Translations under genes and position numbers: made by a program
In this document: one piece after another, positions 1 to 24,783 of the stretch
How the letters are laid out: each line of letters begins with the position of its first letter
How positions within the stretch are numbered: the stretch's first letter is position 1
Source of the DNA: a virus
Taxonomy: Duplodnaviria; Heunggongvirae; Uroviricota; Caudoviricetes
Direction: 5' to 3' (one strand)
Length of the DNA: 39,770 bases
Virus record (IMG/VR): IMGVR_UViG_2778261456_000009
Span: 1 to 39,770 of that record
Notes under the pieces: generated by a model
The model's input: the letters and a program-made list of their open reading frames with translations, nothing else
What the model was told of the DNA's origin: nothing
Database searches by the model: none

Positions 1-192
1 TTGGTTTCAGAAGTCAATACCTACATCAATACCCATCAGTGGCCTGGCAAAGCTGCTATTGGTCGTCTGAAAGGTGACGAGCTGGAACAATATAATTTAT
101 GGCTGGATTATCTGGACGCACTGGAACTGGTTGATACTTCCGGTGCGCCAGATATTGAATGGCCTACGCCTCCGGCAGTTCAGGCCAGATGA
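1..192 (+). CDS. Tail fibre assembly protein, C-terminal fragment (5' end outside window)
   Basis: C-terminus LWLDYLDALELVDTSGAPDIEWPTPP parallels the C-terminus of the convergent minus-strand Tfa (VLDYIDAVTATDTSTAPDVIWPELPEA); track start at nt 1 is an edge artefact. Confidence 0.55.
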   Translation: MVSEVNTYINTHQWPGKAAIGRLKGDELEQYNLWLDYLDALELVDTSGAPDIEWPTPPAVQAR

Positions 193-766
193 CGTCCGGC
201 GCGGTGCTGGTATCTGTTGCCGTCACCGCGTCAATGTAATCCAGCACAGCGTTAAGTCGGGTGTTTTCTGTCTGCGTCAGCTTCCGCCCGGCCTGCAATT
301 TCAGTTGAATCAGACTAATGGAAGCCATTGCAGTATCAATCAGTGACTGACGCTGTGCTTCTGCCGCGCCTACTGCGGCGCTATGCTGTGCTTCAGTATC
401 GGTCACCCATTTCTCACCATCCCATTCATCGTATGGCGTTAAAGGGGCGATAGTGGTTGTATTTTCAGGGTAATCACCCGGAGCTTTGATTTCTTTTGAT
501 TCTCCTGTTTCTGTGCTAAAGACGATTTCACCACGATGGTCTGGCACATATTCCCATGAGTTAAAATCTGCAGAACGGCAGATTGCATAACCAGTTTTGT
601 ATGCGCCTGGATCATCTAAACAGGAACATGCCGGAATGCCGACACCCACAGCAAGATATTCAGTTGATGTAAAAATATATTCCCGTGTTTCACCATCATA
701 GTTATAAACCGTAATATTTCCTGCTTGGGTAGCGATAAATTCGTTATTTAATACAGCGTAATCCAT
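164..766 (-). CDS. Tail fibre assembly protein (Tfa chaperone)
   Basis: 200 aa, Tfa-like conserved C-terminus; immediately downstream of the tail fibre gene; overlaps the convergent plus-strand tfa fragment by 29 nt. Confidence 0.75.
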   Translation of the reverse strand: MDYAVLNNEFIATQAGNITVYNYDGETREYIFTSTEYLAVGVGIPACSCLDDPGAYKTGYAICRSADFNSWEYVPDHRGEIVFSTETGESKEIKAPGDYPENTTTIAPLTPYDEWDGEKWVTDTEAQHSAAVGAAEAQRQSLIDTAMASISLIQLKLQAGRKLTQTENTRLNAVLDYIDAVTATDTSTAPDVIWPELPEA

Positions 767-1581
767 TATGCAGCCCTCACGATATAATTAAAGGCAATGT
801 TTCGAGGACGGTTTTCGTTTGCAGTTGGAACAACTCTGGAAGCATCAAATGTTACTCGCCTTGCATAACCACCTTTAATTGAATCAGATGAAGCATCTCC
901 GATGACGCTGGTTGTAAAAGCACCAGAATCAGAAGGATAGGAATTAAACCTGACATCCACTAATGCACCAATTATATTTCGAATGGCATCGCCCTGTGAT
1001 GAAAGCAAGCTACGGTTAGTATCAATTCCTCTTCCGTCATCCCAGCCGCGAATAAACTCACCACGTAAATCAGGCAATTTATTTGTCGGGTAAACTTTTG
1101 CCAGTTCCGGGTATTCTTCAGCAGAAAAAGCCGCACCATTGCATTTCAGCCAGCCTGTTGGCGGAGTGGCTGAAGGCCACGGAACAGGGACACCAACAGG
1201 TAATGCAGAGCCTTCTCCCAAACCAAGGTTTTCGAGAGCCGTTTTCACCGTGCCATCCGATTTGATATCACCAAACGGATTCTTGCGGCTCAGGTATTCA
1301 ACAGCAAACCCCGATCCCAGCAATTCAACAAAACCGGGCAGATCACCATTATCAAGCACATCCCGTTGCGTTTTATCACTTACAAACTGGGCCAGAGCTG
1401 CAGCAATAAAGCTGGCCTGCCGAATAACCTTATTGACTTGCGCACTGGAGGCTTTCCCTGCTGTAAATCCGGATAAAAGCGCGGGCAACGCTTCCCATTC
1501 CTCCTGCGATATAACATTGGCATTTCGATCCGTTGCAAACGCTTTAAAGTCATTTTTCGCCATCAGAGTAATACTCCCCAT
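766..1581 (-). CDS. Tail fibre protein (receptor-binding portion)
   Basis: 271 aa; N-terminal region ([15 protein letters not shown]...) typical of phage tail fibre proteins, Gly/Ser-rich distal part; position between gpI-like gene and tfa. Confidence 0.65.
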
Positions 1582-2243
1582 GCTCCTACATCAAAACCAC
1601 TGATGAATTCGTTATCCATATCAAAACCAAAAAATTTTGAGCCTTCCGATGGGGTTTCCACCGAAGGTGTTTCAATGCCACCCGCCCATACCCCGGCGGC
1701 TTTTACTGTGAGATACCCCTGTTTAATTGCCGCAATTAACTCACGCGATACATCTGAAATATCAGTATCAGGAAAGACCCAGACCGATATCGTCATGTCC
1801 TGGTTATCGACTATCTGCATTCGCAGCCCGGATCCTGCTGTTGCAGCGTCAAGAATTGCCGGAAGCGAATCATTCCGTCCGTCCCAGTTATTAATCGCAA
1901 TCTTCGCTTTAAGAATGACACGATAAGTTTCATCGCTGAGATACATGTATCCTGAATCAGGATCGTATGGTCCCTGCCATACCCCCTGATCATATCCAAG
2001 CCCGTCGGTATCCCAGCTGAAATAGACACCTGAGATAGGCTGGCTGACAACACGGCTACGTCCGATCCACAATCCAAGAATGTCAAGTTGCACACCAACC
2101 GCAGAGTCAATATCAAATGCAGTAATCAGCCCTCTGGTGGCAGCCGCAACATCAATAAGTGGCCGGGTCATCAGATCAACATGCGCAAGAAATTTAGGTT
2201 TGGTGGCGTGGTAGTTCGTGATTAGTTCGGTGTATTTGCTCAT
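1563..2243 (-). CDS. Tail protein, YmfQ/gpI-like
   Basis: 226 aa; recalled similarity to e14 YmfQ / P2 gpI-family tail proteins; follows baseplate J-like gene. Confidence 0.55.
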
Positions 2244-3439
2244 GACTCCACCGTTATAACGATATTTTCCGGGGTACAGGACGCAGATTCGTTGTATCTG
2301 ATATCAATGTTTGATGACGACAAAGCCCCCGGGGATTTCCCAATCGTCAGTTCCTGAATATCGTAATAGCGTGCATTCCCGCCACTCACCACGCCAAGAT
2401 TCGCCGGTGAGTAAATGCGACTTAAAAGGACCGAATCACCAATCGTCAGACTATTGATATAGTCGGAAATAGCCTGCTGGATCTGCTGCCCTATCTGTGA
2501 GGTATAACCCGTAAAAACTTTTAATTTAATCCGGGCATAAACAGGCACATCACTGGAACGCGAGAATTTGATTACATGGGGATTGCCGTATTTATCCGGA
2601 ACCGTAACGGATGTTGTACCGTGAGTGGCTGTCCCCTGGCCTTTATTCCCTCTGATAGCCTGAGCAATATCCGTCACATCACCGCCATCCACAATTACAG
2701 CAACAGAGTGTGGCGGTAACCCGTTACCGTCCTCCGAACCAGTATCGTTTTCATAGAGTTTGTGGCGGGTTACACCGGTAACATTAGAAACAGCACCATC
2801 CAGTGCTTCAAATGGGGTTATTGATGGCAACGCAACACTTTGCGACTGGCGGATACGTAACTCCGCGTCAGTTTCTGCCGGAGTGCCCACAGTAGCCGCA
2901 GCAGGATTAGTTACCGAAACCCAGCCACGGGTTGGCGTATTAATTTCAGTGATAGTTCCAGCCAGCGCCGCCACTGCACCACTGACGGAACATGTTGCGG
3001 TCACCATCACTGTACCATCCACGCCTACCACCACTGAAGCAGGCAAACGCCATATCACATTATTACTGTCTTTCACGCTGCCATTAATGATGGTTGTTCC
3101 GGCAGTTCCTGTAAGAAGCAAATCAACCGTAGAGTTCGTCGCGCCTTTACGTGAAATACCATTTATTTTCACGTTACTGGTCAGTGCAGCCCCATAGCCG
3201 GTTGCCGGTGAAAAACAGTTGTAGACAGTTATCGCCGTATTATTGGCATCATGAATCGCCAGCGCCATCAGAGCCACCATCTGGCCGTCTTTGCTGTCCG
3301 GTTCGAGGTAGGCATCACTGCCATAAATCTGCTGAAAATAGCTAATCAGGGTGCTGAGTATCGTCTGATAATCAGGCGCACTGATCCCCTCCGCGGTTAC
3401 CTTTGCAGATAAACCGAGAGAATCAAGGTTCAGAGCCAT
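2240..3439 (-). CDS. Baseplate J-like protein
   Basis: 399 aa; size, position and composition consistent with Mu gp47 / P2 gpJ family; 4-nt overlap with downstream gene. Confidence 0.75.
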   Translation of the reverse strand: MALNLDSLGLSAKVTAEGISAPDYQTILSTLISYFQQIYGSDAYLEPDSKDGQMVALMALAIHDANNTAITVYNCFSPATGYGAALTSNVKINGISRKGATNSTVDLLLTGTAGTTIINGSVKDSNNVIWRLPASVVVGVDGTVMVTATCSVSGAVAALAGTITEINTPTRGWVSVTNPAAATVGTPAETDAELRIRQSQSVALPSITPFEALDGAVSNVTGVTRHKLYENDTGSEDGNGLPPHSVAVIVDGGDVTDIAQAIRGNKGQGTATHGTTSVTVPDKYGNPHVIKFSRSSDVPVYARIKLKVFTGYTSQIGQQIQQAISDYINSLTIGDSVLLSRIYSPANLGVVSGGNARYYDIQELTIGKSPGALSSSNIDIRYNESASCTPENIVITVES

Positions 3440-3792
3440 TACGCCTCCGATGTAACAGTCGTTATTCCATAAAGAGTGTCGATTTCAGCGGAAAACATGA
3501 CACGTCGGGTCGTGGTATCCACCGTCGTATTGAAAGAGAGGATTGATTTAACGCCCCGCGTTTCGAGGATGCGCTTACGGATCGCCAGGTTGTAGGTTTC
3601 CGGCTTCTGCTTACCGAGTACGGACTGGATCCACGGAGTCCCCTCGGTGGTGTCGAGAAACCATTGCCCATACCACAATTCGAATCTCGTTTTTACCGCC
3701 TGCGCCACGGCCTCCGGTGAGTTAATCAGCCAGGTGTCATCACCGCTGCCAAAGGTATAATCGCCATCGGCGTCTTCACGTCTGTATCGCAT
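3439..3792 (-). CDS. Baseplate protein, GP46-like
   Basis: 117 aa between spike and J-like genes; start overlaps upstream stop. Confidence 0.6.
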   Translation of the reverse strand: MRYRREDADGDYTFGSGDDTWLINSPEAVAQAVKTRFELWYGQWFLDTTEGTPWIQSVLGKQKPETYNLAIRKRILETRGVKSILSFNTTVDTTTRRVMFSAEIDTLYGITTVTSEA

Positions 3793-4544
3793 CAGTTTAC
3801 CCCATCGGTATTGCTTCCACCGCGCTGAACACCGCCATGAGTGTGCGTATCATCGATTGGCTTGCCGTTAGCCTTCACGCTACCCAAAAACTCAACAGCA
3901 CCAGTGATTTTTGAAGCCACACCAGAAACAACAGACCCCACCATGCCCCCCATCCAGGTTAACAGGCCATGAATGGTTACTTTCTCAGAAAAATCAGCCA
4001 GAGGGGCAACCACATCAAGACCACCCGGAGCGACAATTTTAATTTTCCTGGTGTCAGGATTAAGCTCAAAATAGGTGCTGCCGTCGTCACTACGCAACTG
4101 TGTGGCACTGGTATTAATACCGCTAATCTTCCTCGCCTGCGACTGGGGACCGACAATACAAAACGCATCCGATAAATCATGCATTCTGTCATCGACCGGC
4201 TCCTGTATCCCGCCACTCTGCCACCAGAAATCAATACAACGATCGGCAAAAACGACAAGACACTCATCCCCGGCTTTTACCGGAAAAGTCAACGTACAGC
4301 CTCCGCCGCGCGGGAATACCACTGGTACATCCACCAGCAATGGGTAATTTTTGGTAATGCGCTTGCCGTCATTATCCTTTTCAACCGAACGGATAGCAGG
4401 CTGCACAACTGCCGTCACCGGATCAGGATCGAATGACTGAATAATGCCAGGCAAGGCGACACGGATCTGGTTCTTTGTTGTTTCCCGTTCAGATTTGAAT
4501 GTTTCGGCAAGGTCGCCGCTGCGGGTCTGGTCAGATACTGCCAT
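3792..4544 (-). CDS. Baseplate assembly protein V (central spike)
   Basis: 250 aa; position upstream of GP46/J genes; GGAG RBS upstream of ATG at 4544. Confidence 0.65.
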   Translation of the reverse strand: MAVSDQTRSGDLAETFKSERETTKNQIRVALPGIIQSFDPDPVTAVVQPAIRSVEKDNDGKRITKNYPLLVDVPVVFPRGGGCTLTFPVKAGDECLVVFADRCIDFWWQSGGIQEPVDDRMHDLSDAFCIVGPQSQARKISGINTSATQLRSDDGSTYFELNPDTRKIKIVAPGGLDVVAPLADFSEKVTIHGLLTWMGGMVGSVVSGVASKITGAVEFLGSVKANGKPIDDTHTHGGVQRGGSNTDGVN

Positions 4545-4562
4545 TTAGTAGGCTCCAGAAAG

Positions 4563-4590
4563 CAAAAAACCCGCCGGGTGGCGGGTTTTA
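4563..4590 (-). terminator. Intrinsic terminator downstream of lipoprotein moron
   Basis: Plus strand AAAAACCCGCCGGGTGGCGGGTTTTA; on minus strand a 6-bp GC stem (CCCGCC/GGCGGG, 4-nt loop) followed by TTTTTTGC; lies between lipoprotein stop (4610) and spike gene RBS. Confidence 0.6.
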
Positions 4591-4609
4591 TGTGACTAAT
4601 TTGATCTTT

Positions 4610-5335
4610 TCAGTTTATAAGCCCCATCTTACCGGCGCTTCGATAGTTAATTACATCGCCTGAAGAGCCGCAAGGCACAGCTACAGTCGACATTTTGACA
4701 AATCCTTTACCGCCCTGCTTTTGGCATAAAGTGGCATGCATTTTTGCTAAACGCGCAGCATGACCAAAATCAATTTTGGTTCCGTAAGTTGAATCTCGTA
4801 GAGCTGCTTTTTTTGCAATTCCGGTAATATTTTTGTCTTTAATTACAGATGCAAACAAACTCAAATCATTTCCAATTTGATTGAAGCAAGTACGATTAAT
4901 ATCAACATCGGCATACGCTGAAATGCGTTTGCAATCTGAGATCTGAGAAAGCACAGATGTGTTAACCAGTTGCAAATTTAATTTGTAGTCACCGACATAG
5001 GTATAAATTTTGTTAGGGTCCGTGGTTCCCGGATAACGAGTTACGAATGGAATGCTGTTGTACGCATCTCGCAAAGATTCTGCCCCCTTACTTGTAAGCT
5101 CGTTCCCAACACCAGCAACGATAACCTCTGGATGTGAAACTTCAAATTGAGACTTTTCTTCGCGCTGTATTTGAAGCCTGCTTTTCTGGCTCTCCTCAAC
5201 TTGCTTATCGTACGCTTGTTTTTCTTCATTTTTTTGGGATAGCCATTTTTCCTGCGCTTTAGCACCATTAGGATCCCAACTACATGAAGTTAAAAAAAGA
5301 GAAAATACGATTGTGGTTATCGCAAGCCTGCTCAC
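4610..5335 (-). CDS. Lipoprotein of unknown function (moron)
   Basis: 241 aa; N-terminal signal peptide with lipobox LTSC; charged coiled-coil-like segment then globular C-terminal domain; AT-rich relative to neighbours; GTG start 2 nt after upstream stop with GAGGTG RBS. Confidence 0.75.
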   Translation of the reverse strand: MSRLAITTIVFSLFLTSCSWDPNGAKAQEKWLSQKNEEKQAYDKQVEESQKSRLQIQREEKSQFEVSHPEVIVAGVGNELTSKGAESLRDAYNSIPFVTRYPGTTDPNKIYTYVGDYKLNLQLVNTSVLSQISDCKRISAYADVDINRTCFNQIGNDLSLFASVIKDKNITGIAKKAALRDSTYGTKIDFGHAARLAKMHATLCQKQGGKGFVKMSTVAVPCGSSGDVINYRSAGKMGLIN

Positions 5336-5337
5336 TA

Positions 5338-6402
5338 TTATGCACCTCGATTCATCGCTGACTGGCTAGGAATATCACTAGCACCTCGAGCAAAGCACAT
5401 CATATCCATGTACCACGCCTGGCCCCTTGTGTCGCCAGTGTACATAATCCCGCGCACAATATAAACGCCATCCGTTGCGATGCTGGCAGGCTGCGATGTG
5501 GTGCCGCTTAGCGTGATATTTCCATCCGAGTTCTGGTCGGTGATCTGACCACCAGCCATCGCAATATCGTTGTTCGACAACGCGGTGCGATATACGGAAG
5601 CCTGATCCAGTTGAATGAGCCCATTAACCCGGATGTTCGGATTAATAAGCGCGCGGACGTTTACGCCGTTGCCGATAGTCTGCTGCGGCATGCCGATAAG
5701 CCCGGTGGCGCTGTTGAGCACAATCGCTTCATGAACATATTCGTTATTCGCCACCATCTGGCGTTGACCGTCCACGAATTGCCATGTTGCGCCACATTGC
5801 CCGGCTACGTTATCCATAAGATGCCGCGTCATGCCAAAGAGCACCCGCCCCCGGGGGAATACAGTAGCAGGCATTTCAGGCGTCAGGCCTTCGGTCGCGC
5901 CTTTGGCTTCGAAGTCTTTCATCAGCGCACGGTTCACATCAGCGACCGTGTAACCGGCAGCCAGCGTCTGTGAGGTTATACTGGTGGCAAATGCCAGATC
6001 CGTATCTGCTGCCTGAATCAGGACATAGGAATCAATAGGGCTGTCTTTTCCTGTGACCGAGTAGCGAATTTCTCCGCTGAAAATCAGCCCGTAGTTGCGG
6101 CCATCTGTCTGGCCCACGTCCGCCGCGTCAACTTCCCGCACGGTCCCTACGTCGCTTGCTGACACCTCCGGCGCGATACCGTCGTAACCGGCAATCAGAC
6201 GCACTTTCGAAAATTCCTGCCCGGTGATTCGGTTCACAGTATCTGCCGAGAGGTTATAAATTTTGATAGTCCCTACCCGGGACGCGCTGCTGATGTTGAA
6301 CCAGTCGATCGTAAAGGTGACTTTGAAATCACTTAGCTCAATTCCCTGACCGTTCCCGTTCACAAGCTGCAGCTCGAAATGTCTCATCCAGTTCTGTGAC
6401 AT
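5338..6402 (-). CDS. Baseplate hub / tail protein (Mu P or P2 gpD-like)
   Basis: 354 aa, located between tape-measure-distal small tail genes and the spike; assignment by position and size only. Confidence 0.5.
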   Translation of the reverse strand: MSQNWMRHFELQLVNGNGQGIELSDFKVTFTIDWFNISSASRVGTIKIYNLSADTVNRITGQEFSKVRLIAGYDGIAPEVSASDVGTVREVDAADVGQTDGRNYGLIFSGEIRYSVTGKDSPIDSYVLIQAADTDLAFATSITSQTLAAGYTVADVNRALMKDFEAKGATEGLTPEMPATVFPRGRVLFGMTRHLMDNVAGQCGATWQFVDGQRQMVANNEYVHEAIVLNSATGLIGMPQQTIGNGVNVRALINPNIRVNGLIQLDQASVYRTALSNNDIAMAGGQITDQNSDGNITLSGTTSQPASIATDGVYIVRGIMYTGDTRGQAWYMDMMCFARGASDIPSQSAMNRGA

Positions 6403-6404
6403 GC

Positions 6405-6707
6405 TTACTCCGTTGATACCAGTAAATGACTGCGGCCGCCCAGATCAGTTTTTGTGGGGTAATCCTGTGTGTTGTCATCGCAGACCACCACCAGCTTAAA
6501 ACCAAGTCCCATACAGGCGTACTGCGCCAGCAGATCAGCGCCAGTGACGAGAGGAATACCGGAAATTACCGGCTCCCCTCTGTCGTTCTGCAGGTCCATA
6601 ATCCAGTAAAGATCGCGCCATATGATGCTAATCTGCCAAGTGACACCACCCAGGACGATGCTGAACTGCTGGTTGTCCGCTGTCAGCGGAATTTCCTGAA
6701 TTATCAT
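6405..6707 (-). CDS. Tail protein, unknown function
   Basis: 100-aa ORF tightly packed in the tail operon. Confidence 0.45.
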   Translation of the reverse strand: MIIQEIPLTADNQQFSIVLGGVTWQISIIWRDLYWIMDLQNDRGEPVISGIPLVTGADLLAQYACMGLGFKLVVVCDDNTQDYPTKTDLGGRSHLLVSTE

Positions 6708-7294
6708 TAGCCGCCTCCCAGTAATGACGCCACGTTACCAGTGATGCTTTTCAGCAGTGAAGTATCTGGAGGCTTTGTGGTTTTGTTGCCGCTGTTCTGT
6801 ACCGCCGACGTGCTGGCCCCTTCCTTCATGTTGGTTTTATCCGCGACGGTAATCTGCTGTGTCCGGGAGATAATGACCTCCCTCAGGGTGAGGACGGCGG
6901 ACAGGACGTTTTCGGTTGTCTTGTCCGTCGTCACTTCCAGCGCCCGGATCAACATGTTGCTGTACAGCCGTTTACCGGTTACCACATCGAAGGGGATACG
7001 GCTTTCCTGCAGATCCAGTAGCTCCTGATACGTCTGCTGAGGACTCAGGCCGAGCAGGCTGGTAGCCGTCAGGTTACTGGCAAAATCCAGCAATGCGCCG
7101 CCACCGGCGAAACCAACCTCCATCACCACTTCTGACGGTTTTTTATAGGCATGATCAGCGACAGCGGCCCCGACCTCTACCGGATGCTCTGTTATTTCAA
7201 GCATATCTGTATGCTTCTCTGAAATAACAACACTGGGAACAATCATTCCTATTTTTCTGCTCTGCTGATGAAAAAGTGTAGAGAGAATATCCAC
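6707..7294 (-). CDS. Tail protein (possibly DNA-circulation-like)
   Basis: 195 aa directly downstream of tape measure gene with start/stop overlap. Confidence 0.45.
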   Translation of the reverse strand: MDILSTLFHQQSRKIGMIVPSVVISEKHTDMLEITEHPVEVGAAVADHAYKKPSEVVMEVGFAGGGALLDFASNLTATSLLGLSPQQTYQELLDLQESRIPFDVVTGKRLYSNMLIRALEVTTDKTTENVLSAVLTLREVIISRTQQITVADKTNMKEGASTSAVQNSGNKTTKPPDTSLLKSITGNVASLLGGG

Positions 7295-9279
7295 TAACCC
7301 ACCCTCACCTGATTACTTCGCATGACCTGAGCATTTGCAGACTGTTGCCGACGTGCAACCTCATTACCGACAGCGTGCGGATCTCCGCCACCGTAAATGT
7401 GGTAGGTATTTTGCTGGTTAACCTCTGTCACTTTGCCACTAATTCCCGCCACGGCAGCCTTATTAATCAGCTCTCGAGAATAGATATTTCTTCCATTCTC
7501 ATGCTGGATAATGCTGCTCATCAATGCTGACATGGTTTGCGGATCGCTCATATTCAGGGCAGCCCGGGGATCCACTCCCAGTCGTTGCGATACAGCCCTG
7601 ATATACGCGGTTGTGTTGTTATTATCAGACGCAGGTGCCCAGGTAGAGATAATTTTCTCCACACTGTTTATTCCCCGTCCGGCGTACAGCATTAACTGAC
7701 GAGCAAGAGCCCGTAATCCATCAAAAGCAGTTTCAAATCTGGCAAATCGCCCGCCCGGTCGTTCAAGAGAAGCCCCCGCCTGACCAGCAAAATTAAGGTT
7801 TCCCGGATTGTTATTCCGTTCTCCTCGCTTCGTAGCCTGTGCATGTTGTTCCGGCTCAGCACCTGGAATATCTGACTGAATATTTGCGCCTTTTACGGTA
7901 TGAGGATTACGACCAAAATCGGTATCAATGCCAAGCCAGCGCAATGAATCTCCAATATTTTGTTTCGTGTAATCCCAGGATGACTTCGCACTGGCACCAA
8001 TATTTTCGCGATCGGAGTACAAATAAGCAGCATAAGCCATCCAGCCTTTTAACCATGGCGGTACCGGCAAACCAGATATTTTCCCGAAAGCCCCCAGAAC
8101 CCTGGATACCCAGACACCCGCGATGAATGTACCGAGGATTTCCAGTGCATTTTGCCAGCCGCCAACACCATCTTTTAGTTCCAGAAGGTGATCACGAAGC
8201 CAGGTGATCGCATCCTTCGCTTTATCTATTGCCGGTTGCCATTTTTCCCAGTCGATAAGACTGTTACCGCCTTCTTTCCATGTTTTGTAGTCTTCCCACA
8301 AGAGACCGAGAGCCACGATCAGACCGGTAATCAGCCCTATAGGTGACATCCAGAAAGTAGAGTTAAGTATCCGCATGGCGACAACCAGACCGCCGATAAC
8401 CTCTATCAGGGTTTTCGTTTCGGCATCCAGTTTCCCCCACCACTCGATGATATCTCCGACACCATCGACTATCCGAAATGCTACCCGCCCGACTATCTCA
8501 CCCAGCCAGAGGATCCCCTTTATGACCTTTGTGATGGTGACTTCAATTTTGGGAAAATTTTCAATTATCTTTTTGCGCAGGTTATCAATCTGCCCCGCCA
8601 GTCCGTCCGCAAGATTCGATCCGATTTTGTCCCGCGCCATCCCGGCCATTTCACCGAGCGATTTCAGCGAGGTCATAAACCGGTTTGACGATAAGGCAGC
8701 CTGATCGGCATTAAATCCGATCGCTTTCACCATTTCTGAATACTGAGCGCTGAACTGCCCCACTCCGCGACGCATAGCCATCAGGGTATTTTCGTCAATG
8801 CCCAGCATCTGCGCATACTGGTTAGCCCGGTAATACGGCATGCTGCTGAGTTTCTGTCCAACGCCCGTAAAGATAGCAGCCATGTCACGCATGTTACCGC
8901 TGGCATCACGGGTCTGTACGCCCAGGCGATTCAGAAAGCCTTCTGCTCCGGGATTGTTACGAATAAACCTGGAGAGGCTTTCCAGAGAAGATCGCGCAGC
9001 GTCCACACTGCCGCCAACCTGCGAAACCGCATAGCCAATAGACTGAATTCCCTGGACCGTCGCGCCGGTGCGCTGTGACGCCCAGTAAAGATTATCCAGG
9101 CCGGAGGCGATCTTAGCCGTGAAGGCCACCACGGACAGCGCAGCTCCTTCAACAGCCAGCCCCATTTTGATGACATTTGCAGTTGTACCGGCGAGGACAG
9201 AACCGAACTTTTTCGCTCCTGCATCATCCACACTGAAGCCAAGCGAGACGAGGAAATCTTTAATAGTTTCAGCGTTCAT
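7294..9279 (-). CDS. Tail tape measure protein
   Basis: About 660 aa, Ala/Gly-rich helical N-terminus, central hydrophobic segments, C-terminal globular domain; first ATG at 9279 preceded by GGAGAGAGG (track start at 9300 is TTG). Confidence 0.7.
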   Translation of the reverse strand: MNAETIKDFLVSLGFSVDDAGAKKFGSVLAGTTANVIKMGLAVEGAALSVVAFTAKIASGLDNLYWASQRTGATVQGIQSIGYAVSQVGGSVDAARSSLESLSRFIRNNPGAEGFLNRLGVQTRDASGNMRDMAAIFTGVGQKLSSMPYYRANQYAQMLGIDENTLMAMRRGVGQFSAQYSEMVKAIGFNADQAALSSNRFMTSLKSLGEMAGMARDKIGSNLADGLAGQIDNLRKKIIENFPKIEVTITKVIKGILWLGEIVGRVAFRIVDGVGDIIEWWGKLDAETKTLIEVIGGLVVAMRILNSTFWMSPIGLITGLIVALGLLWEDYKTWKEGGNSLIDWEKWQPAIDKAKDAITWLRDHLLELKDGVGGWQNALEILGTFIAGVWVSRVLGAFGKISGLPVPPWLKGWMAYAAYLYSDRENIGASAKSSWDYTKQNIGDSLRWLGIDTDFGRNPHTVKGANIQSDIPGAEPEQHAQATKRGERNNNPGNLNFAGQAGASLERPGGRFARFETAFDGLRALARQLMLYAGRGINSVEKIISTWAPASDNNNTTAYIRAVSQRLGVDPRAALNMSDPQTMSALMSSIIQHENGRNIYSRELINKAAVAGISGKVTEVNQQNTYHIYGGGDPHAVGNEVARRQQSANAQVMRSNQVRVG

Positions 9280-9909
9280 TATCCTCTCTCCATTTCTCAA
9301 TGCGCCGCTGGTTATCCGCTTTTACCGCCAGATGGTCATTCAAGAGAGCAATGTCATACAAATCGACAGAGCCATCTTTAAGTGCTGTATAGGGAATTAA
9401 CCCGGCGTCAACCGGATTGAGAAGGTAGGACAGCCCGTCCGGCAGGCTGTTAAACGTCAGCCCTGTTGCAGGCTCTGCGTCGTGCTGGTAAGGGGTGTAG
9501 GCAAAAAATTTCCCAGCGAATCGGCGACCACCCGCGCCACCAGATGAAGCATGACCAGCAAGTCAATATCATCAAACATCAGTTCGCCATGGGTAAATAC
9601 CGGCACCCATCCGTCCATATGACGCCGCGATACCACCGCAAGACAGGGATGAATAATCGCATCGGTGTCATCTTCGGTCAGGGAAGACAGTTCCTCAGCG
9701 ATACGCGGGAGCATGGTTTCAAACACCGGTTTTAACTGCTCGAATTTCACGGTGTCGATCTTGCCATCAGCAGGCAAACGGGAGCGAATGCTCCCGAAAT
9801 CTGACATCATTCCCGCCAGTACCGGCAGAAGTTTGCGGGTCACTTTCAGCTGGTCAAAAACGCTGAGTTTTGCCACGCGATATTTCACGCCTTTGATTTC
9901 GAATTCCAT
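9269..9909 (-). CDS. Tail assembly chaperone, predicted -1 frameshift-extended isoform (lambda G-T analogue)
   Basis: From slippery A-AAT-TTT-TTG near 9503-9512 the -1 frame is open for 74 codons (FAYTPYQHDAEPATGLTFNSLPDGLSYLLNPVDAGLIPYTALKDGSVDLYDIALLNDHLAVKADNQRRIEKWREDNER) to TGA at 9269-9271; hand-translated. Confidence 0.45.
9457..9909 (-). CDS. Tail assembly chaperone (zero-frame product)
   Basis: 150 aa between tail tube and tape measure genes, acidic; canonical position of chaperone. Confidence 0.6.
   Translation of the reverse strand: MEFEIKGVKYRVAKLSVFDQLKVTRKLLPVLAGMMSDFGSIRSRLPADGKIDTVKFEQLKPVFETMLPRIAEELSSLTEDDTDAIIHPCLAVVSRRHMDGWVPVFTHGELMFDDIDLLVMLHLVARVVADSLGNFLPTPLTSTTQSLQQG
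9500..9513 (-). promoter_or_regulatory. Candidate -1 ribosomal slippery site
   Basis: Coding strand GGA-AAT-TTT-TTG (plus strand GGCAAAAAATTTCC); fits X-XXY-YYZ heptamer A-AAT-TTT, about 17 codons before the zero-frame stop. Confidence 0.45.
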
Positions 9910-9912
9910 GTA

Positions 9913-10353
9913 TTAAAACTCCCCGAGAACCTGGTCAATCTTGCCGCAGTCAAACACCCACGGCATCGTATTACCGGTTTTAGCGTTGGCGTTATCCGGT
10001 TGTTTCTGGAACGCAACACTGCGTGCCGTGATGATGTCGCCGCTGACCTTGTTGCGGATCACGATAACGTTATTCCCCCATGTGGCAGAAGACTGGCTCT
10101 GTGCGTTATACGCCAGCGACAATTTTTTATTTGTCGGTGATGTCTTCAGAAGGTTAACGGTAATCGTCCCGCTTTTATCTGCATGGAGACTGTGCATCAC
10201 TTCACCATCAGCACCGATGGTCATGGTGTTTTTAGGACCGCCCATCGCAACCACAATCCCCTCTTCAGAACTTGCCGAACCGTACCCAAGGTCAATCGAA
10301 CCGGTCGGCCCGGTCAGCGTCGCAGTGACATCCATAAAAGAATAGGTAGACAT
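9913..10353 (-). CDS. Tail tube protein
   Basis: 146 aa immediately downstream of sheath gene; typical sheath-tube-chaperone-tape measure order. Confidence 0.65.
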   Translation of the reverse strand: MSTYSFMDVTATLTGPTGSIDLGYGSASSEEGIVVAMGGPKNTMTIGADGEVMHSLHADKSGTITVNLLKTSPTNKKLSLAYNAQSQSSATWGNNVIVIRNKVSGDIITARSVAFQKQPDNANAKTGNTMPWVFDCGKIDQVLGEF

Positions 10354-10363
10354 TCACTTCCCC

Positions 10364-11509
10364 TTAGCGAACAACGTTAATCTGTACGTCAGCGTAATGA
10401 ACCGCGCCTGCAAGTTTTATTGCAGCCTGAATCACCGGAGCCTTACGGGCTTCACGCTCTGATTGTGCCTGTTCATCCAGCGGCTGGGCGTATACGTAAT
10501 AACCTTTGGGCAGCGTGTCACCTGATGACAACTGGCCAAGGTCGCCACCGTTCCATACGCCCGGAGCAATCAGTCCATTCTGAACGGCCTGATCCAGTGA
10601 TTTTTCAACATTTGATAACAGTCGGGTAATACCGGCTTCAGTCTGGGGAACCTTCGTGGTGCTGGTATAAAGCAGGTTATAGAGGTTGGTCTGCACATAA
10701 TTCTGTAACCAGTCCAGGCCGTGGCGTTCATCAAAGAAATCGCCGTTAGCCATCACTCCCTGCTGGAGGATAGCTGTATCATTCTGGTAGTACACGAACA
10801 CATTGCAGTTTTTTGCATCAAGTGCCGATGCCTGACTGACTGTCAGTGTTTCATACCCGACACCCGGCTCCTGCTTAAACTTGAGCGTAATCGCGGTATT
10901 ACTGCCATTGAAATTAACCGTGAATGCCCGGCCAAATGCAGATAACGCAGCGTATTTATTACCCGATGAATACTGAATAAAACTGCGTGAATATCCGGCG
11001 GTTTTCAGTTTTGATGCCAAATCATCTCTGGATGCAGTCTGCAGGCATTTCTCATCGCTTGTCGTAATCGCCAGAATACGGCTTACAGAAGAGGATTCGA
11101 TCGCCGCAGCCACTTTCAGCCAGTCTGCATCCGGAATATCTGCATCGTCTGCAATCCCCAGCCCATACCATGAAGTATAATCAAGCATGGCATTCACAGC
11201 CTGCTCCAGCGTCTCAGGCGTGGCCTGTTCGCTGTCTCCCTTCGTTTTCACCCAACGACCAACAAAAACCTCCTGAGGTTTCGGTGATTGTGAGAAAAAC
11301 ACCTGCGCAGCTTTATATTCTGGTGATTCCACGCCAAAATCTTTTCCAATATCTTCCGCGGCAGAATAACGACGAATGCGCTCACTTACCGGAATGATTG
11401 TGGACGGGCCGAGAATGAGTAATGCACCAAAATTTCGCCCTGATGCTGCACGCGGCGACATGATCACATCAACATTAACAACGTTTGATACAGGCAAGCC
11501 CTGTGCCAT
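10364..11509 (-). CDS. Tail sheath protein
   Basis: 381 aa; position and size typical of contractile-tail sheath. Confidence 0.7.
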
Positions 11510-11512
11510 AGC

Positions 11513-12079
11513 TTAATCTCCGAAAAAGATGACTGGTGCTTCCACCAGCGATTTAATACCGTACTCGCGCACAACCTTCCGGCGCAGGCGCACCGTCATA
11601 TCGTAGCGGCGGACCCATTGCTGATTAATAAGTTCAGGGAAGGGAGTCAGACCTGTGTAATCGCCAAGAGACAGCCCCAGCGCATTCAGTGCTACATTGT
11701 TCTGCGGCACAGATATACCGTCACGAAACCGGGACGCATACACCATCCCCGCCGGTCCATAAAACGAAGCCATACACTCAATCGTTTCATGCCGCCAGAG
11801 CTGAGAGCCATCATCGGTCTGTCTGGTGAATGCCGGACTGTCATCACCTGACCATCCGATAACCCCAAACGCACACCAGTTCGTTTCAACCGGTAGCAGT
11901 GGCGGCTGCTCTTTCTGCCAGCGCGGGCGAACCATCCCGGCAGACAGACCGGAAACGTTACGCATCCACTGGCTTAACAGCCTGTCGAGCGCTTCGTCAT
12001 AATCCGGATCGCCACTGGTTGGTATTAACCATCCGCGCTCTGTACTGGTGTTATTGCTCAACCGGAGTTCCCCCATCAA
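11513..12079 (-). CDS. Virion protein (tail completion/neck candidate)
   Basis: 188 aa between head-tail joining genes and sheath; positional. Confidence 0.45.
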   Translation of the reverse strand: MMGELRLSNNTSTERGWLIPTSGDPDYDEALDRLLSQWMRNVSGLSAGMVRPRWQKEQPPLLPVETNWCAFGVIGWSGDDSPAFTRQTDDGSQLWRHETIECMASFYGPAGMVYASRFRDGISVPQNNVALNALGLSLGDYTGLTPFPELINQQWVRRYDMTVRLRRKVVREYGIKSLVEAPVIFFGD

Positions 12080-12440
12080 ACGGCATCAACTCACAATGCG
12101 CCTGAACGAATCCGGCCCCATAAGCTGTATACGGGTCGACGAAGGTCACACGATAATCACGGCCCTGATACGTCACGATATCGGCATCACGGCCAGTCTG
12201 TCCCTGCGTCAGTCGCTCAGTCGTCACAATCAGAATTGCACCGCTGATTACCTGCCCTGCCTGCATACGGCGGTTTTCCAGAGAGCGATCAACAGTTACG
12301 ACTCCGGCAAACTGCTTTTTAACTTCACTGTCGCTGCCGATCCCGTCCTCATCCACCGTTTGCACTCGGCGTGTTACCCACAAATTGAAGTCGCAAAAAT
12401 CGGGGTCAAAAAGCACATCTGTTACATCAAGAGTCGGCAT
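12051..12440 (-). CDS. Head-tail connector candidate
   Basis: 129 aa, overlapping neighbours in operon; positional. Confidence 0.4.
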   Translation of the reverse strand: MPTLDVTDVLFDPDFCDFNLWVTRRVQTVDEDGIGSDSEVKKQFAGVVTVDRSLENRRMQAGQVISGAILIVTTERLTQGQTGRDADIVTYQGRDYRVTFVDPYTAYGAGFVQAHCELMPFDGGTPVEQ

Positions 12441-12981
12441 CTTTATCCCTCACAACATGGGTAATCGCTCTGCGATATTGCCCGGTGTCAATTAATGGTT
12501 TCGCCAGTTCGGTTCCCGGGGATTCGCCAGCAGCACGCCGGGCAAGTTCCAGTGTTGCCCCCTTGCGCCCCCGACGAGCCCGGGCTTCAACAGTACTGTC
12601 AGCAAGCGGCGTAAAGCCGGTAATAGTCATGTAACGCCTGACGCCATTAGCGGCCAGCGTTCCGGCACGGTTGAGTGCGCGTTCTGCTCCCGCAGCATTA
12701 CCATCAAGAGCAGCCTGCGCCGCGGCTTTGAGCTGCGGCACCGTCTGCTCTTCTGCCGATTTAACGCCGGGGACCAGGTGAGGTCGTGGCGGGATGTTCT
12801 GCTCTGGTGAGCCGTATTCGTTGAGGTAACCGATGCCCGCATTACCAAACGGAACATCATCCCGCTCGCTGTCTTCCGAAGGGATGCCGACCAGCACATC
12901 TTTTTTGGTTAACGACCTGAGCGCATCCAGAATGGCCTTAGCGTTATCCACCCTCGTTGTTACACCGCTTTTGAAACTCAT
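12427..12981 (-). CDS. Head-tail joining protein candidate
   Basis: 184 aa; positional. Confidence 0.45.
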
Positions 12982-21762: not shown

Positions 21763-22098
21763 TTACTCCTTATGGGCACCGAACTTGTTACCGATGACCC
21801 TCATTGCCGCACCACGAATAGCATCAACACCAATCAGCCCCACCCCACCACCAATGGCAACAGAAAGTGATTTAGGCCATCCGACATACTCAAGCGCGGA
21901 TGCAAAGGTCAGCGTCAGGGCACCACAGAGCAAAATCTCAAGCGTTTTTCGTTTCCAGCCCCCACCACCGCCAAAATAGGCGATGCGCAAACCAGCCATA
22001 ACGATCGACATAATCACTGCGCCCAGCGGAGTGTCTCCACGCCACCAGCTCTGAAACAACTCCAGCCAGTCCGGCCAGGTATTTGGGTTATGAGGCAT
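21763..22098 (-). CDS. Holin
   Basis: Small protein with two hydrophobic helices and charged C-terminus directly upstream of endolysin; ATG at 22098 has GAGGTGA RBS, upstream in-frame ATG at 22122 has none. Confidence 0.65.
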   Translation of the reverse strand: MPHNPNTWPDWLELFQSWWRGDTPLGAVIMSIVMAGLRIAYFGGGGGWKRKTLEILLCGALTLTFASALEYVGWPKSLSVAIGGGVGLIGVDAIRGAAMRVIGNKFGAHKE

Positions 22099-22221
22099 TT
22101 CATCATCTCTCACCTCGCACATATCGCGGGTGCAAATTGAGGGAATAAAAAATCCCCGAATATTCCAGGAGCGGAAACGGGGAAAGGCGTTGCACTAAAT
22201 GGGTCTGTCTGCGGCCTTAAA

Positions 22222-22248
22222 TAAAAAACCCCGGCAAATGCCGAGGTC
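22222..22248 (-). terminator. Intrinsic terminator in late leader (proximal to holin)
   Basis: Minus strand CCTCGGC-ATTT-GCCGGGG followed by TTTTTTATTT. Confidence 0.5.
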
Positions 22249-22470
22249 AGTTAATCGTTGCCGCTGTGAGTGCCGCAGCGCACTATCTCTTTATCAGGCC
22301 ACTTACGCGTTAAACCAGGTGCCAACCGTAACTCAGTGATGCTTTACGCTTCCTCTCCCTCACTACGTCGCCATGGGAGCCCGACCAGATTAACGCTGTC
22401 GTCACGTTGCCAATATATGGCATCCAATGCATTCTTTTTATTTAGCTATTTCATTTTTTCTATCCGTCAG

Positions 22471-22498
22471 AAACAACAAAACCCGCTCAATGGCGGGT
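22471..22498 (-). terminator. Intrinsic terminator in late leader (tR'-like, proximal to Q-like gene)
   Basis: Minus strand ACCCGC-CATTGA-GCGGGT followed by TTTTGTTGTTT. Confidence 0.5.
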
Positions 22499-22582
22499 TC
22501 TGGTAAAGTTCATGCGCTTGGTTCGCCTCGCGATACAGCTTTGCGAAGCATACCGAAATTGAAGCAGTTTATGCGTAAAAAA

Positions 22583-23125
22583 TCAAGCTATTTTTTGAGC
22601 AAATGATTCTCGCATGGGAATATATAGGACATACTCAGCAACTGCCAACCAATTAGCAATTCGCTTTTCGCATGTGCTAAAACACCACTCAGGATGTGCA
22701 TCATTCAGCAATTCAGCCATTTTGCGCTTAGTCATCCCCCGCCCTTCATACCGTTGCCGGAGGACACTAATCAATCCAGGATGCTCTGCCAGCACCTCAC
22801 TTATGACTCGATCAATACATAACGCCTCTGCATCAGTACAATGCGCCAGCCAGGTCTTTTGCTTGCCATTGATCATCTCTCGCAAAAACGCTTCCAGCTC
22901 AATTTTATCCATTCCCGCTTTTTTCATTCTGCGCAGGGCTTCATTGATGGCTGTTTTCGTCAATTTTTTGGATGCCAGCAACTGGTTAAACATATTCCCC
23001 GTCTTACCGCCGCCAATATACGACCAGCGCCCCCACATGCGCAGTTTTCCCTGAATCCAGACACTTTCCAGCGTGGTGAGACGAAGGTGTTCCCCGCTTT
23101 TGCCTGTATTTGTTGGGTAAATCAT
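22583..23125 (-). CDS. Putative late-gene antiterminator (Q-like) by position
   Basis: 180 aa from ATG at 23125 (ATGA overlap with upstream gene); occupies Q position between nin-like genes and late leader; family not confirmed. Confidence 0.45.
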   Translation of the reverse strand: MIYPTNTGKSGEHLRLTTLESVWIQGKLRMWGRWSYIGGGKTGNMFNQLLASKKLTKTAINEALRRMKKAGMDKIELEAFLREMINGKQKTWLAHCTDAEALCIDRVISEVLAEHPGLISVLRQRYEGRGMTKRKMAELLNDAHPEWCFSTCEKRIANWLAVAEYVLYIPMRESFAQKIA

Positions 23126-23412
23126 AAATAACCTTCCTTTCTCCAGATTTCTTGCGTACGAAAAACACCTTCTGCGTGCATCAGGCGTAATTCTTCTTTG
23201 GTGTAATCGCTGGTTTTTACCCGCCCGTCGATTAAATCGTGGCACGAGCTACAGGCAATCGCTGCCTGCATATCGTGTGGCTTTATCGCTGTTCCGCACG
23301 TTCCCGCCAGTCGGTAATGCGCCAGCACAGACGTTTCGGGATTGTGATTGCAGTAGCCAGGGATTCTGACCTGGCACATCTGGCCCCGCGCTGCTTTACG
23401 TAAATCCACCAT
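23122..23412 (-). CDS. ybcO: YbcO-like Cys-rich DUF1364 protein
   Basis: 96 aa, matches recalled DLP12 YbcO pattern (DLRKAARG..CQVRIPG.CN.NPETSVLAH...IACSSCHD). Confidence 0.7.
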   Translation of the reverse strand: MVDLRKAARGQMCQVRIPGYCNHNPETSVLAHYRLAGTCGTAIKPHDMQAAIACSSCHDLIDGRVKTSDYTKEELRLMHAEGVFRTQEIWRKEGYL

Positions 23413-24570: not shown

Positions 24571-24726
24571 TTACTCCTCAGATTCGTAAGCTGTGAAGAC
24601 AGCGACCTCCGTCTGGCCGGTTCGGATTCGTACCTCGCAGAGGTCTTTCCTCGTTACCAGTGCCGTCACTATGACGGTTAAACAGATGACGATCAGGGCG
24701 ATTAACATCGCCTTTTGCTGCTTCAT
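24571..24726 (-). CDS. hok: Hok/Gef-family type I toxin
   Basis: 51 aa MKQQKAMLIALIVICLTVIVTALVTRKDLCEVRIRTGQTEVAVFTAYESEE, near-identical to recalled HokD/RelF and Gef; AAGGAG RBS. Confidence 0.85.
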   Translation of the reverse strand: MKQQKAMLIALIVICLTVIVTALVTRKDLCEVRIRTGQTEVAVFTAYESEE

Positions 24727-24783
24727 AGCCTGCTTCTCCTTGCCTTTCGGCGCGTAAGAGGCTAACCTACATGTGCAAGTCAT
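24571..24783 (-). CDS. mok: Mok-like in-frame leader ORF of hok
   Basis: In-frame 19-codon extension from ATG at 24783 (MTCTCRLASYAPKGKEKQA-), analogous to mokC/hokC in-frame arrangement. Confidence 0.4.
   Translation of the reverse strand: MTCTCRLASYAPKGKEKQAMKQQKAMLIALIVICLTVIVTALVTRKDLCEVRIRTGQTEVAVFTAYESEE

Follow-up and report, generated by a model that had tools for sequence, protein, structure and literature searches.

A lambdoid-regulated prophage with a contractile tail module of the SEN34/Brunovirus-like myovirus type carries, between its baseplate hub and spike genes, a gene for a predicted outer-membrane lipoprotein from an undescribed protein family with a confident predicted fold and no known relatives. 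Comparison of related loci indicates that the gene is a replaceable cassette in a slot that is never empty among 74 close relatives and that ends, in nearly all of them, in an intrinsic terminator. We favour, with somewhat better than even confidence, the reading that the product is an envelope-acting accessory protein, not a part of the virion, that would block incoming phages or re-adsorption (broad superinfection exclusion), with the genes beyond the terminator reached by Q-dependent read-through.

The window is the whole 39,770-nt stretch of viral DNA that was analysed (IMG/VR record IMGVR_UViG_2778261456_000009), and in its gene list all genes from approximately 22 kb down to position 164 lie on the minus strand. 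In the order of transcription, the tail genes encode the sheath (10364-11509), tube (9913-10353), chaperone (9457-9909), tape measure (7294-9300), a Dit-like protein (6707-7294), the plug (6405-6707), a 354-aa baseplate hub (5338-6402; phrog_196 ‘baseplate hub’, E 3e-87; Pfam E217_GP41), the 241-aa lipoprotein (4610-5335 including the stop, GTG start), a 250-aa spike (3792-4544; N-terminal spike domain PF18352, E 5e-44, and an Apex motif, both from Pfam), the sheath initiator (3439-3792), baseplate J (2240-3439), a wedge protein (1563-2243), the fibre (766-1581) and a fibre assembly protein (164-766). Two of these genes vary in ways of their own. The C-terminal half of the spike (3792-4196, minus strand) is swapped independently of the N-terminal domain: among loci with near-identical neighbours, the C-domain is 40% to 100% identical and the N-domain 92-98%. 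The tape measure contains a C-terminal ...ERNNNPGNLNF... region and no Pfam hydrolase domain, and an SLT lytic transglycosylase domain is present in the tape-measure proteins of two relatives (L016 and L017).

The lipoprotein gene is tightly joined to the hub gene. As an earlier sequence-only reading had stated, its GTG start (5335-5333) follows the hub stop codon TAA (5340-5338) at a spacing of 2 nt. A GAGGTG Shine-Dalgarno-like motif (5343-5348, minus strand), read from the sequence, lies within the end of the hub gene, 7 nt 5' of the GTG. In diverse homologues the start overlaps or abuts the hub stop. Purifying selection (dN/dS 0.11-0.13 against homologues 79-86% identical) argues that the open reading frame is a genuine gene. 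The same reading was also right that the gene is more AT-rich than its surroundings, with a GC content of 0.41 compared with 0.494 for the window and 0.50-0.57 for the hub gene. This difference (0.41 versus 0.49-0.56) favours a classical moron, that is, a horizontally acquired gene with its own promoter and terminator that the repressed prophage expresses for lysogenic conversion or exclusion, an explanation that we regard as possible, if doubtful. Against it stands the promoter search, since the gap between the genes cannot accommodate a promoter, and upstream of the gene the sigma-70 consensus scan, which a weak or alternative-sigma promoter could escape, gave nothing at 9/12 or better and 8/12 as its best match. 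Given the 2-nt spacing, the homologues that overlap or abut the hub stop and the best match of 8/12, the idea of a promoter of its own did not hold up. A promoter embedded in the hub 3' end was also considered. The -10-like hexamer TACACT (5442-5437, minus strand) contains a Thr codon, ACT (5439-5437), that is the top synonymous outlier of the hub alignment (16/17 sequences, where ACT is a minor codon at 18%), and this counts in favour of a moron. Regional synonymous conservation at the hub 3' end is, however, not significant (window-level permutation P = 0.32), which leaves the embedded promoter unsupported despite one striking site.

The encoded protein has the features of an exported lipoprotein. 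Its N-terminus (MSRLAITTIVFSLFLTSC) combines a positive n-region (Arg3) with a 12-residue hydrophobic core (mean Kyte-Doolittle 2.48) and a lipobox, L-T-S-C, that fits the pattern [LVI][ASTVI][GAS]C and has Cys18 as the lipidation residue (signal peptide and lipobox 5282-5335, minus strand, from hydropathy and Cys conservation). The Cys is kept in at least 90% of 29 family members, and the earlier proposal of a lipoprotein with lipobox LTSC is supported. In Enterobacteria, the +2 rule links a Ser at +2 (no Asp) to Lol sorting to the outer membrane; with Ser at this position, the product is predicted to be an outer-membrane lipoprotein of 224 aa in its mature form. AlphaFold2, run with 14 family sequences, models the full protein at a pLDDT of 85.5 as a helix followed by an alpha/beta domain. 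The helix (residues 22-67; 5135-5272, minus strand; pLDDT 87-94) is rich in E, K and Q and about 45 residues long. It had been described as a charged coiled-coil-like segment, and of this the charge stands, in a confident single long helix, whereas the coiled coil is rejected: no heptad pattern was found, with hydrophobic residues at no more than 31% of a/d positions in any register. The helix is probably a spacer and not a heptad coiled coil.

The alpha/beta domain (residues 68-241; 4613-5134, minus strand) is modelled with higher confidence when taken alone (residues 62-241; pLDDT 90.4, pTM 0.84). It contains four cysteines that are conserved in addition to the lipid Cys, namely Cys135, Cys150, Cys204 and Cys222, of which Cys135 and Cys150 are invariant in the 29 members, down to 18% identity, and from which we infer two disulfides. 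The wider family does not conserve the residues of a candidate metal site (His68/Glu70/His192/His200), and an enzymatic role based on it was rejected for this reason; the lack of conserved ligands points to a binding domain rather than an enzyme. The domain has no Pfam, PDB-sequence or fold match, in agreement with the earlier statement that the C-terminal domain belongs to no family that could be named: sequence, profile and structure comparison gave neither a family nor a fold. For the lipoprotein family, Pfam, NCBIfam, PADLOC and PDB sequences gave zero matches; in Pfam, the window protein matched no family at E up to 0.1, and the 29 members had none in common at E up to 10. The best PHROG match, phrog_3727 (E 0.0053), is weak, not significant and confined to the N-terminal 60 residues. 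A literature search by accession numbers and phage group returned no paper on the lipoprotein. One homologue, WP_029399670.1 (L051, 611-1336, NZ_CM136170.1), is named ‘HMG-box domain-containing protein’ by RefSeq/PGAP in some genomes. We rejected an HMG-box protein in view of the missing profile match (E up to 0.1 for the window protein, up to 10 for the 29 members), and the name is probably an artefact of the K/E/Q-rich helix.

The same comparisons bear on the idea that the lipoprotein is a periplasmic inhibitor of a tail-borne peptidoglycan hydrolase, similar to Spackle or to lysozyme inhibitors, that protects the lysogen or the infected cell. The model for such a function is T4 Spackle, an exported periplasmic inhibitor of the spike lysozyme that acts on the incoming penetration apparatus. 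Unlike the lipoprotein described here, Spackle is not lipid-anchored and is encoded outside the baseplate cluster. Among the 29 family members there was one chance-level Pfam match to Spackle (E 0.031) and no fold match, and neither profile nor fold comparison gave a match to DUF1311/LprI-type lysozyme inhibitors. We consider an inhibitor of this kind quite improbable.

To define the slot we used viral contigs with a hub at least 95% identical (n = 80), 74 of which span both the hub and the spike. The first gene behind the hub is ‘a’, which encodes a secreted protein of approximately 113 aa (phrog_3443, function not known), at 62/74 loci, the lipoprotein at 7/74 and ‘c’, which encodes a secreted protein of 153-158 aa, at 5/74. 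The minimum hub-to-spike gap across the 74 loci is 393 nt, which is room for ‘a’ alone, and as this shortest gap does hold ‘a’, the slot is never empty in the 74 relatives. In every relative examined the first slot gene encodes a protein with an export signal; those of ‘a’ and ‘c’ are, by eye, Sec-type signal peptides with Ala-X-Ala-like cleavage sites. The ‘c’ protein is a remote relative of the lipoprotein's core domain and aligns to it over residues 112-202 (hhalign probability 96.7%, E 4.5e-10). The ‘a’ protein, which has two conserved Cys, was rejected as a homologue (hhalign probability 0.9%). Examples of ‘c’ are L058 5446-5907, L076 approximately 5556-6032 and L050 3402-3812, all on the plus strand, and the 19 relatives of ‘c’ that were found are all hypothetical proteins from Enterobacterales. 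Examples of ‘a’ are L008 2520-2873, L001 3815-4150, L012 2102-2443 and L013 2104-2442, all on the minus strand, and ‘a’ occupies the post-hub position in most relatives, including Klebsiella, Yersinia and Salmonella phages.

Homology between alleles ends about 18 codons before the hub stop and restarts exactly at the hairpin in front of the spike gene. The last approximately 18 hub codons vary among slot alleles (C-termini of the window compared with L008), which places the upstream exchange boundary inside the hub 3' end. The alleles are exchanged by recombination between these last hub codons and the hairpin. In Hafnia phage yong1 (L050, approximately 3815-3875), a remnant of the 3' end of ‘a’ (...SMDAPKLIGSFPCKKV) lies just past the ‘c’-type gene, the scar of an earlier allele replacement in the slot. 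Additional variable cargo, ‘b’, is sometimes found behind the first gene and includes DUF4282 and two membrane proteins. The latter, of 176 and 204 aa (L008 1983-2513, minus strand; L007 6782-7396, plus strand), have transmembrane helices, and both weakly match PycTM, a Pycsar membrane effector (PADLOC, E 5e-5 to 3e-4); to judge from these matches, the slot may also carry defence-type effectors.

More than 40 loci of this tail type, with homologues 35-99% identical, show the order hub, lipoprotein, spike; the exceptions are one lineage with the gene between plug and hub and one long form outside a phage context. The lipoprotein is somewhat more diverged (38-46% identity) than its neighbours (46-77%), and its history can be decoupled from theirs: at one locus the hub is 90% identical and the lipoprotein 47%, and at two others the lipoprotein has a dS of 0.013-0.019 compared with 0.13-0.17 for the hub. 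One lipoprotein allele was found beside differing tape-measure, spike-tip and fibre alleles; linkage to any of the three was looked for and not found. Complete E. coli genomes with the flanking genes carry the lipoprotein gene in 12/326 cases. Absence from close relatives is the usual mark of a moron in the Juhala/Hendrix sense; the gene is missing from most of these genomes and from all but 7/74 contigs, but other genes stand in its place and the slot is never empty. Its replaceability (12/326) speaks for a moron. The earlier reading would have been contradicted by a conserved structural component in all related tails, which a gene present at 7/74 loci is not. Homologues as low as about 35% identity still occupy this position, and the gene diverges roughly in step with its neighbours, both of which argue against a moron.

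The family is small: a search of 5.8 billion (5.8e9) proteins gave 15 clusters, and one of 1.8 billion (1.8e9) proteins gave 36 representatives when grouped at 50% identity. Named hosts are Enterobacterales in every case, and the lipobox is present in nearly all members. In long forms (330-378 aa) an extra N-terminal domain of approximately 150 aa replaces the helix region. One of these, of 378 aa (L015 5001-6137, plus strand), adjoins GntR regulators and sugar-metabolism genes with no tail module, and is perhaps an orphan copy or a domesticated one. Searched by tblastn against 50,697 genomes of isolated phages, the window protein and the long form P0028 gave no match, and P0043 gave a single weak match, to the ‘c’-type relative in Hafnia phage yong1.

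Constant adjacency raises the question of a cytoplasmic baseplate assembly factor or minor structural protein for which the signal peptide is incidental. The gene invariably adjoins the hub gene and is coupled with it, the synteny is deep and the slot is never empty, all of which would suit such a factor. We nevertheless consider it extremely improbable, because the export signals are conserved (the lipobox in the family and the Sec signals seen by eye in ‘a’ and ‘c’), the conserved Cys pairs suit an oxidising periplasm, non-homologous alleles interchange on near-identical tails, and the isolated phage genomes hold only the one weak ‘c’-type match.

The slot is closed by an intrinsic terminator (4560-4589, minus strand; AAAACCCGCC-ACCC-GGCGGGTTTT, then TTGCTTT). 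In the terminator scan its hairpin (4589..4566) has 10 pairs, 6 of them G-C, and a 4-nt loop followed by TTGCTTTCTG, with UUUUUUGCUUU as the U-run, and it is the strongest minus-strand terminator-like site in 1-12000. It is present in the minimum-free-energy RNA fold (z = -2.7 compared with shuffles), and Rfam gave only sub-threshold matches, reflecting the hairpin. The Shine-Dalgarno sequence (GGAG, 4556-4553) and ATG (4544) of the spike gene are 4 and 16 nt past the terminator, directly after the hairpin, and so leave no room for a promoter. The GC hairpin and U-run that had been noticed just before the spike ribosome-binding site are thus a predicted terminator, and the view that no promoter fits behind it stands. 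A hairpin and T-run before the spike ribosome-binding site occur at the equal position in 72/74 close relatives. Across the 74 loci the loops vary (ACCC, GGAT, ACTT, ATTC, TTCG and others) and the stems are kept, and 5/10 stem pairs show compensatory changes among relatives. Hafnia phage yong1 has a compensatory CCCGTC/GACGGG variant, and the distant loci L003, L006, L007 and L013 have another sequence with an equal hairpin structure. A hairpin that is common to all alleles, with its stems kept, indicates that the terminator is a selected element of the backbone and not a part of the cargo.

For the moron explanation this result cuts both ways: a terminator 3' of the gene is what it calls for, but one common to all alleles was not brought in by the lipoprotein gene. 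Of the earlier designation as a moron, what remains is that the gene is replaceable (12/326), AT-rich (0.41) and followed by a terminator; that the slot is always filled (74/74), the terminator belongs to the backbone and a promoter was not found does not fit.

A way past the terminator is suggested by the late regulatory region of the window. A Q-like late antiterminator gene (22583-23245, minus strand) matches phrog_753 ‘anti-termination protein Q-like’ at E 8e-79, as well as Pfam DUF1133 and, weakly, Phage_antitermQ. Consensus scans place a pR'/tR'-like region at 22227-22648 (minus strand), with a promoter-like site at 22648..22619 (TTGGCA-18-TATATT) and terminator-like hairpins at 22502..22477 and 22248..22227, 5' of the holin gene (21763-22122, minus strand; Pfam), all of them consensus matches only. 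The Q-like gene lies upstream of the genes for holin, endolysin, Rz-like spanin, terminase and tail, which all share its minus-strand orientation. An o-spanin identity for the lipoprotein was rejected, since the phage already encodes a cassette of holin, endolysin and Rz-like genes. Upstream of the Q-like gene, the early/nin-like region contains an open reading frame (24571-24783, minus strand) for a toxin of the Hok/Gef family (Pfam E 3e-23). In lambda, Q-modified polymerase ignores intrinsic terminators, and by the same behaviour the spike and later genes would be expressed here. By this analogy read-through by the Q-like antiterminator is plausible, as the earlier reading had suggested, given the Q-like gene, the promoter-like site, the two terminators and the co-oriented late genes. 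The terminator is kept in 72/74 relatives although only unmodified polymerase should heed it; this is a hint that the lysogen transcribes the slot, and a further point for a moron.

The mechanism that we favour would run as follows. The lipoprotein would be made at least late in infection, with both its transcription and its translation coupled to those of the hub. It would then receive its lipid and be sent to the outer membrane, in whose inner leaflet it would be anchored, and the helix of about 45 residues (approximately 7 nm) would keep the globular domain close to the peptidoglycan. There it would act as a non-enzymatic binder on the envelope that blocks incoming phages or wasteful re-adsorption and penetration. 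Q-modified RNA polymerase would ignore the hairpin, so that the spike and later baseplate genes are expressed, and unmodified polymerase, for example in a lysogen, would stop at it. The position, the coupling to the hub, the filled slot and the interchangeable unrelated alleles fit an envelope role under diversifying pressure, and by comparison with known phage proteins we take superinfection exclusion, or else the protection of progeny, to be its likeliest role. Exclusion and lysogenic conversion, the candidate functions of the earlier reading, stay plausible.

A different, rather unlikely reading is that the post-hub gene encodes a standing but fast-swapping periplasmic partner of this tail type, which would engage in trans the penetration machinery (spike, tape measure) or the envelope target of that machinery, and that the terminator is a Q-dependent gate that lets the prophage express the slot genes and not the spike. 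Slot proteins could then form a new class of tail-module-linked exported proteins with at least two unrelated folds (‘a’, and the lipoprotein together with ‘c’).

The lipoprotein could also serve the phage's own lytic cycle, as a late exported protein that masks the envelope or receptor on dying cells and cell debris and so saves progeny, with the hairpin tuning or stabilising the late mRNA as an attenuator or 3'-end stabiliser. The precedent is T5 Llp, a lipoprotein encoded near the receptor-binding gene that inactivates FhuA, excludes phages and protects progeny, and the tail-module location parallels that of llp beside the T5 receptor-binding gene. Coupling to the hub with no promoter detected agrees with a lytic role, and a slot filled in 74/74 relatives suits a needed over an optional function. 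Three alleles, two of them unrelated in sequence, nevertheless occur on tails 95-99% identical, linkage to fibre alleles was not found, and attenuation is unlikely because Q-modified polymerase is expected, from lambda, to ignore the hairpin. We regard this lytic reading as distinctly unlikely.

The favoured reading, an envelope-acting exclusion factor, has several precedents. Like Cor and Llp, the protein is a phage lipoprotein encoded near tail or receptor-binding genes; those two are approximately 60-80 aa, whereas the lipoprotein here has 224 aa in its mature form, with a spacer helix. No homology to either was found: tblastn against 50,697 phage records (assumed to include T5, phi80 and N15) gave no match, and no PHROG or Pfam match was significant. 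Cor of phi80, N15 and HK022 is an outer-membrane lipoprotein that inactivates the FhuA receptor, excludes phages and protects progeny (PMC3594210), and Cor and HK97 gp15 are both precedents for envelope-acting proteins from tail operons (PMC3594210). HK97 gp15 is a superinfection exclusion moron in the tail operon with deviating base composition and a terminator 3' of it (PMC3594210). It is a non-structural accessory protein of the envelope, its gene lies among the tail genes of a lambdoid prophage, and it acts on the tails of incoming phages (PMC3594210), a role that is proposed for the protein here. HK97 gp15, however, is small, resides in the inner membrane and belongs to the YebO family; it has a promoter of its own, and related phages lack it. 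Here we find an outer-membrane-type lipoprotein of 241 aa from an unrelated family, with no promoter detected and in a slot that is always occupied. TP-J34 Ltp is a prophage surface lipoprotein that blocks tape-measure-mediated DNA entry of other phages (PMC3952083). It resembles the present protein in being a prophage lipoprotein, but it comes from a Gram-positive host and adjoins the lysogeny module, and the lipoprotein here has zero Pfam matches. As for the operon, the Q-like gene, promoter-like site, terminators and co-oriented genes with a terminator-flanked accessory gene resemble the lambda late operon (pR'-tR'-Q; lom, bor). Unlike lambda, the tail is contractile and SEN34-like, and the slot for accessory genes has a fixed place, is always filled and begins with a gene for an exported protein.

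Accessory genes in phage structural operons are a known source of host-protective or host-modifying functions. In contrast to the usual optional add-on, this locus is a fixed, filled position in a widespread enterobacterial prophage tail module, reserved for exported proteins and provided with a conserved terminator. If the slot proteins are exclusion factors, the slot would be a predictable site in which to seek new envelope-level anti-phage functions in E. coli, Salmonella and Klebsiella, with a bearing on host-range failures in phage therapy. If they instead serve the phage's own cycle, they would point to an unrecognised periplasmic step tied to the baseplate type.

At the edge of the window, an open reading frame (1-192, plus strand) is convergent with the fibre assembly gene (164-766, minus strand) and ends in a motif resembling the C-terminus of the fibre assembly protein (...LDYLDALELVDTSGAPDIEWP). 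The relative L003 has a resolvase/invertase gene (12143-12694) 3' of its fibre genes. Together, the motif and this gene suggest an invertible fibre segment.
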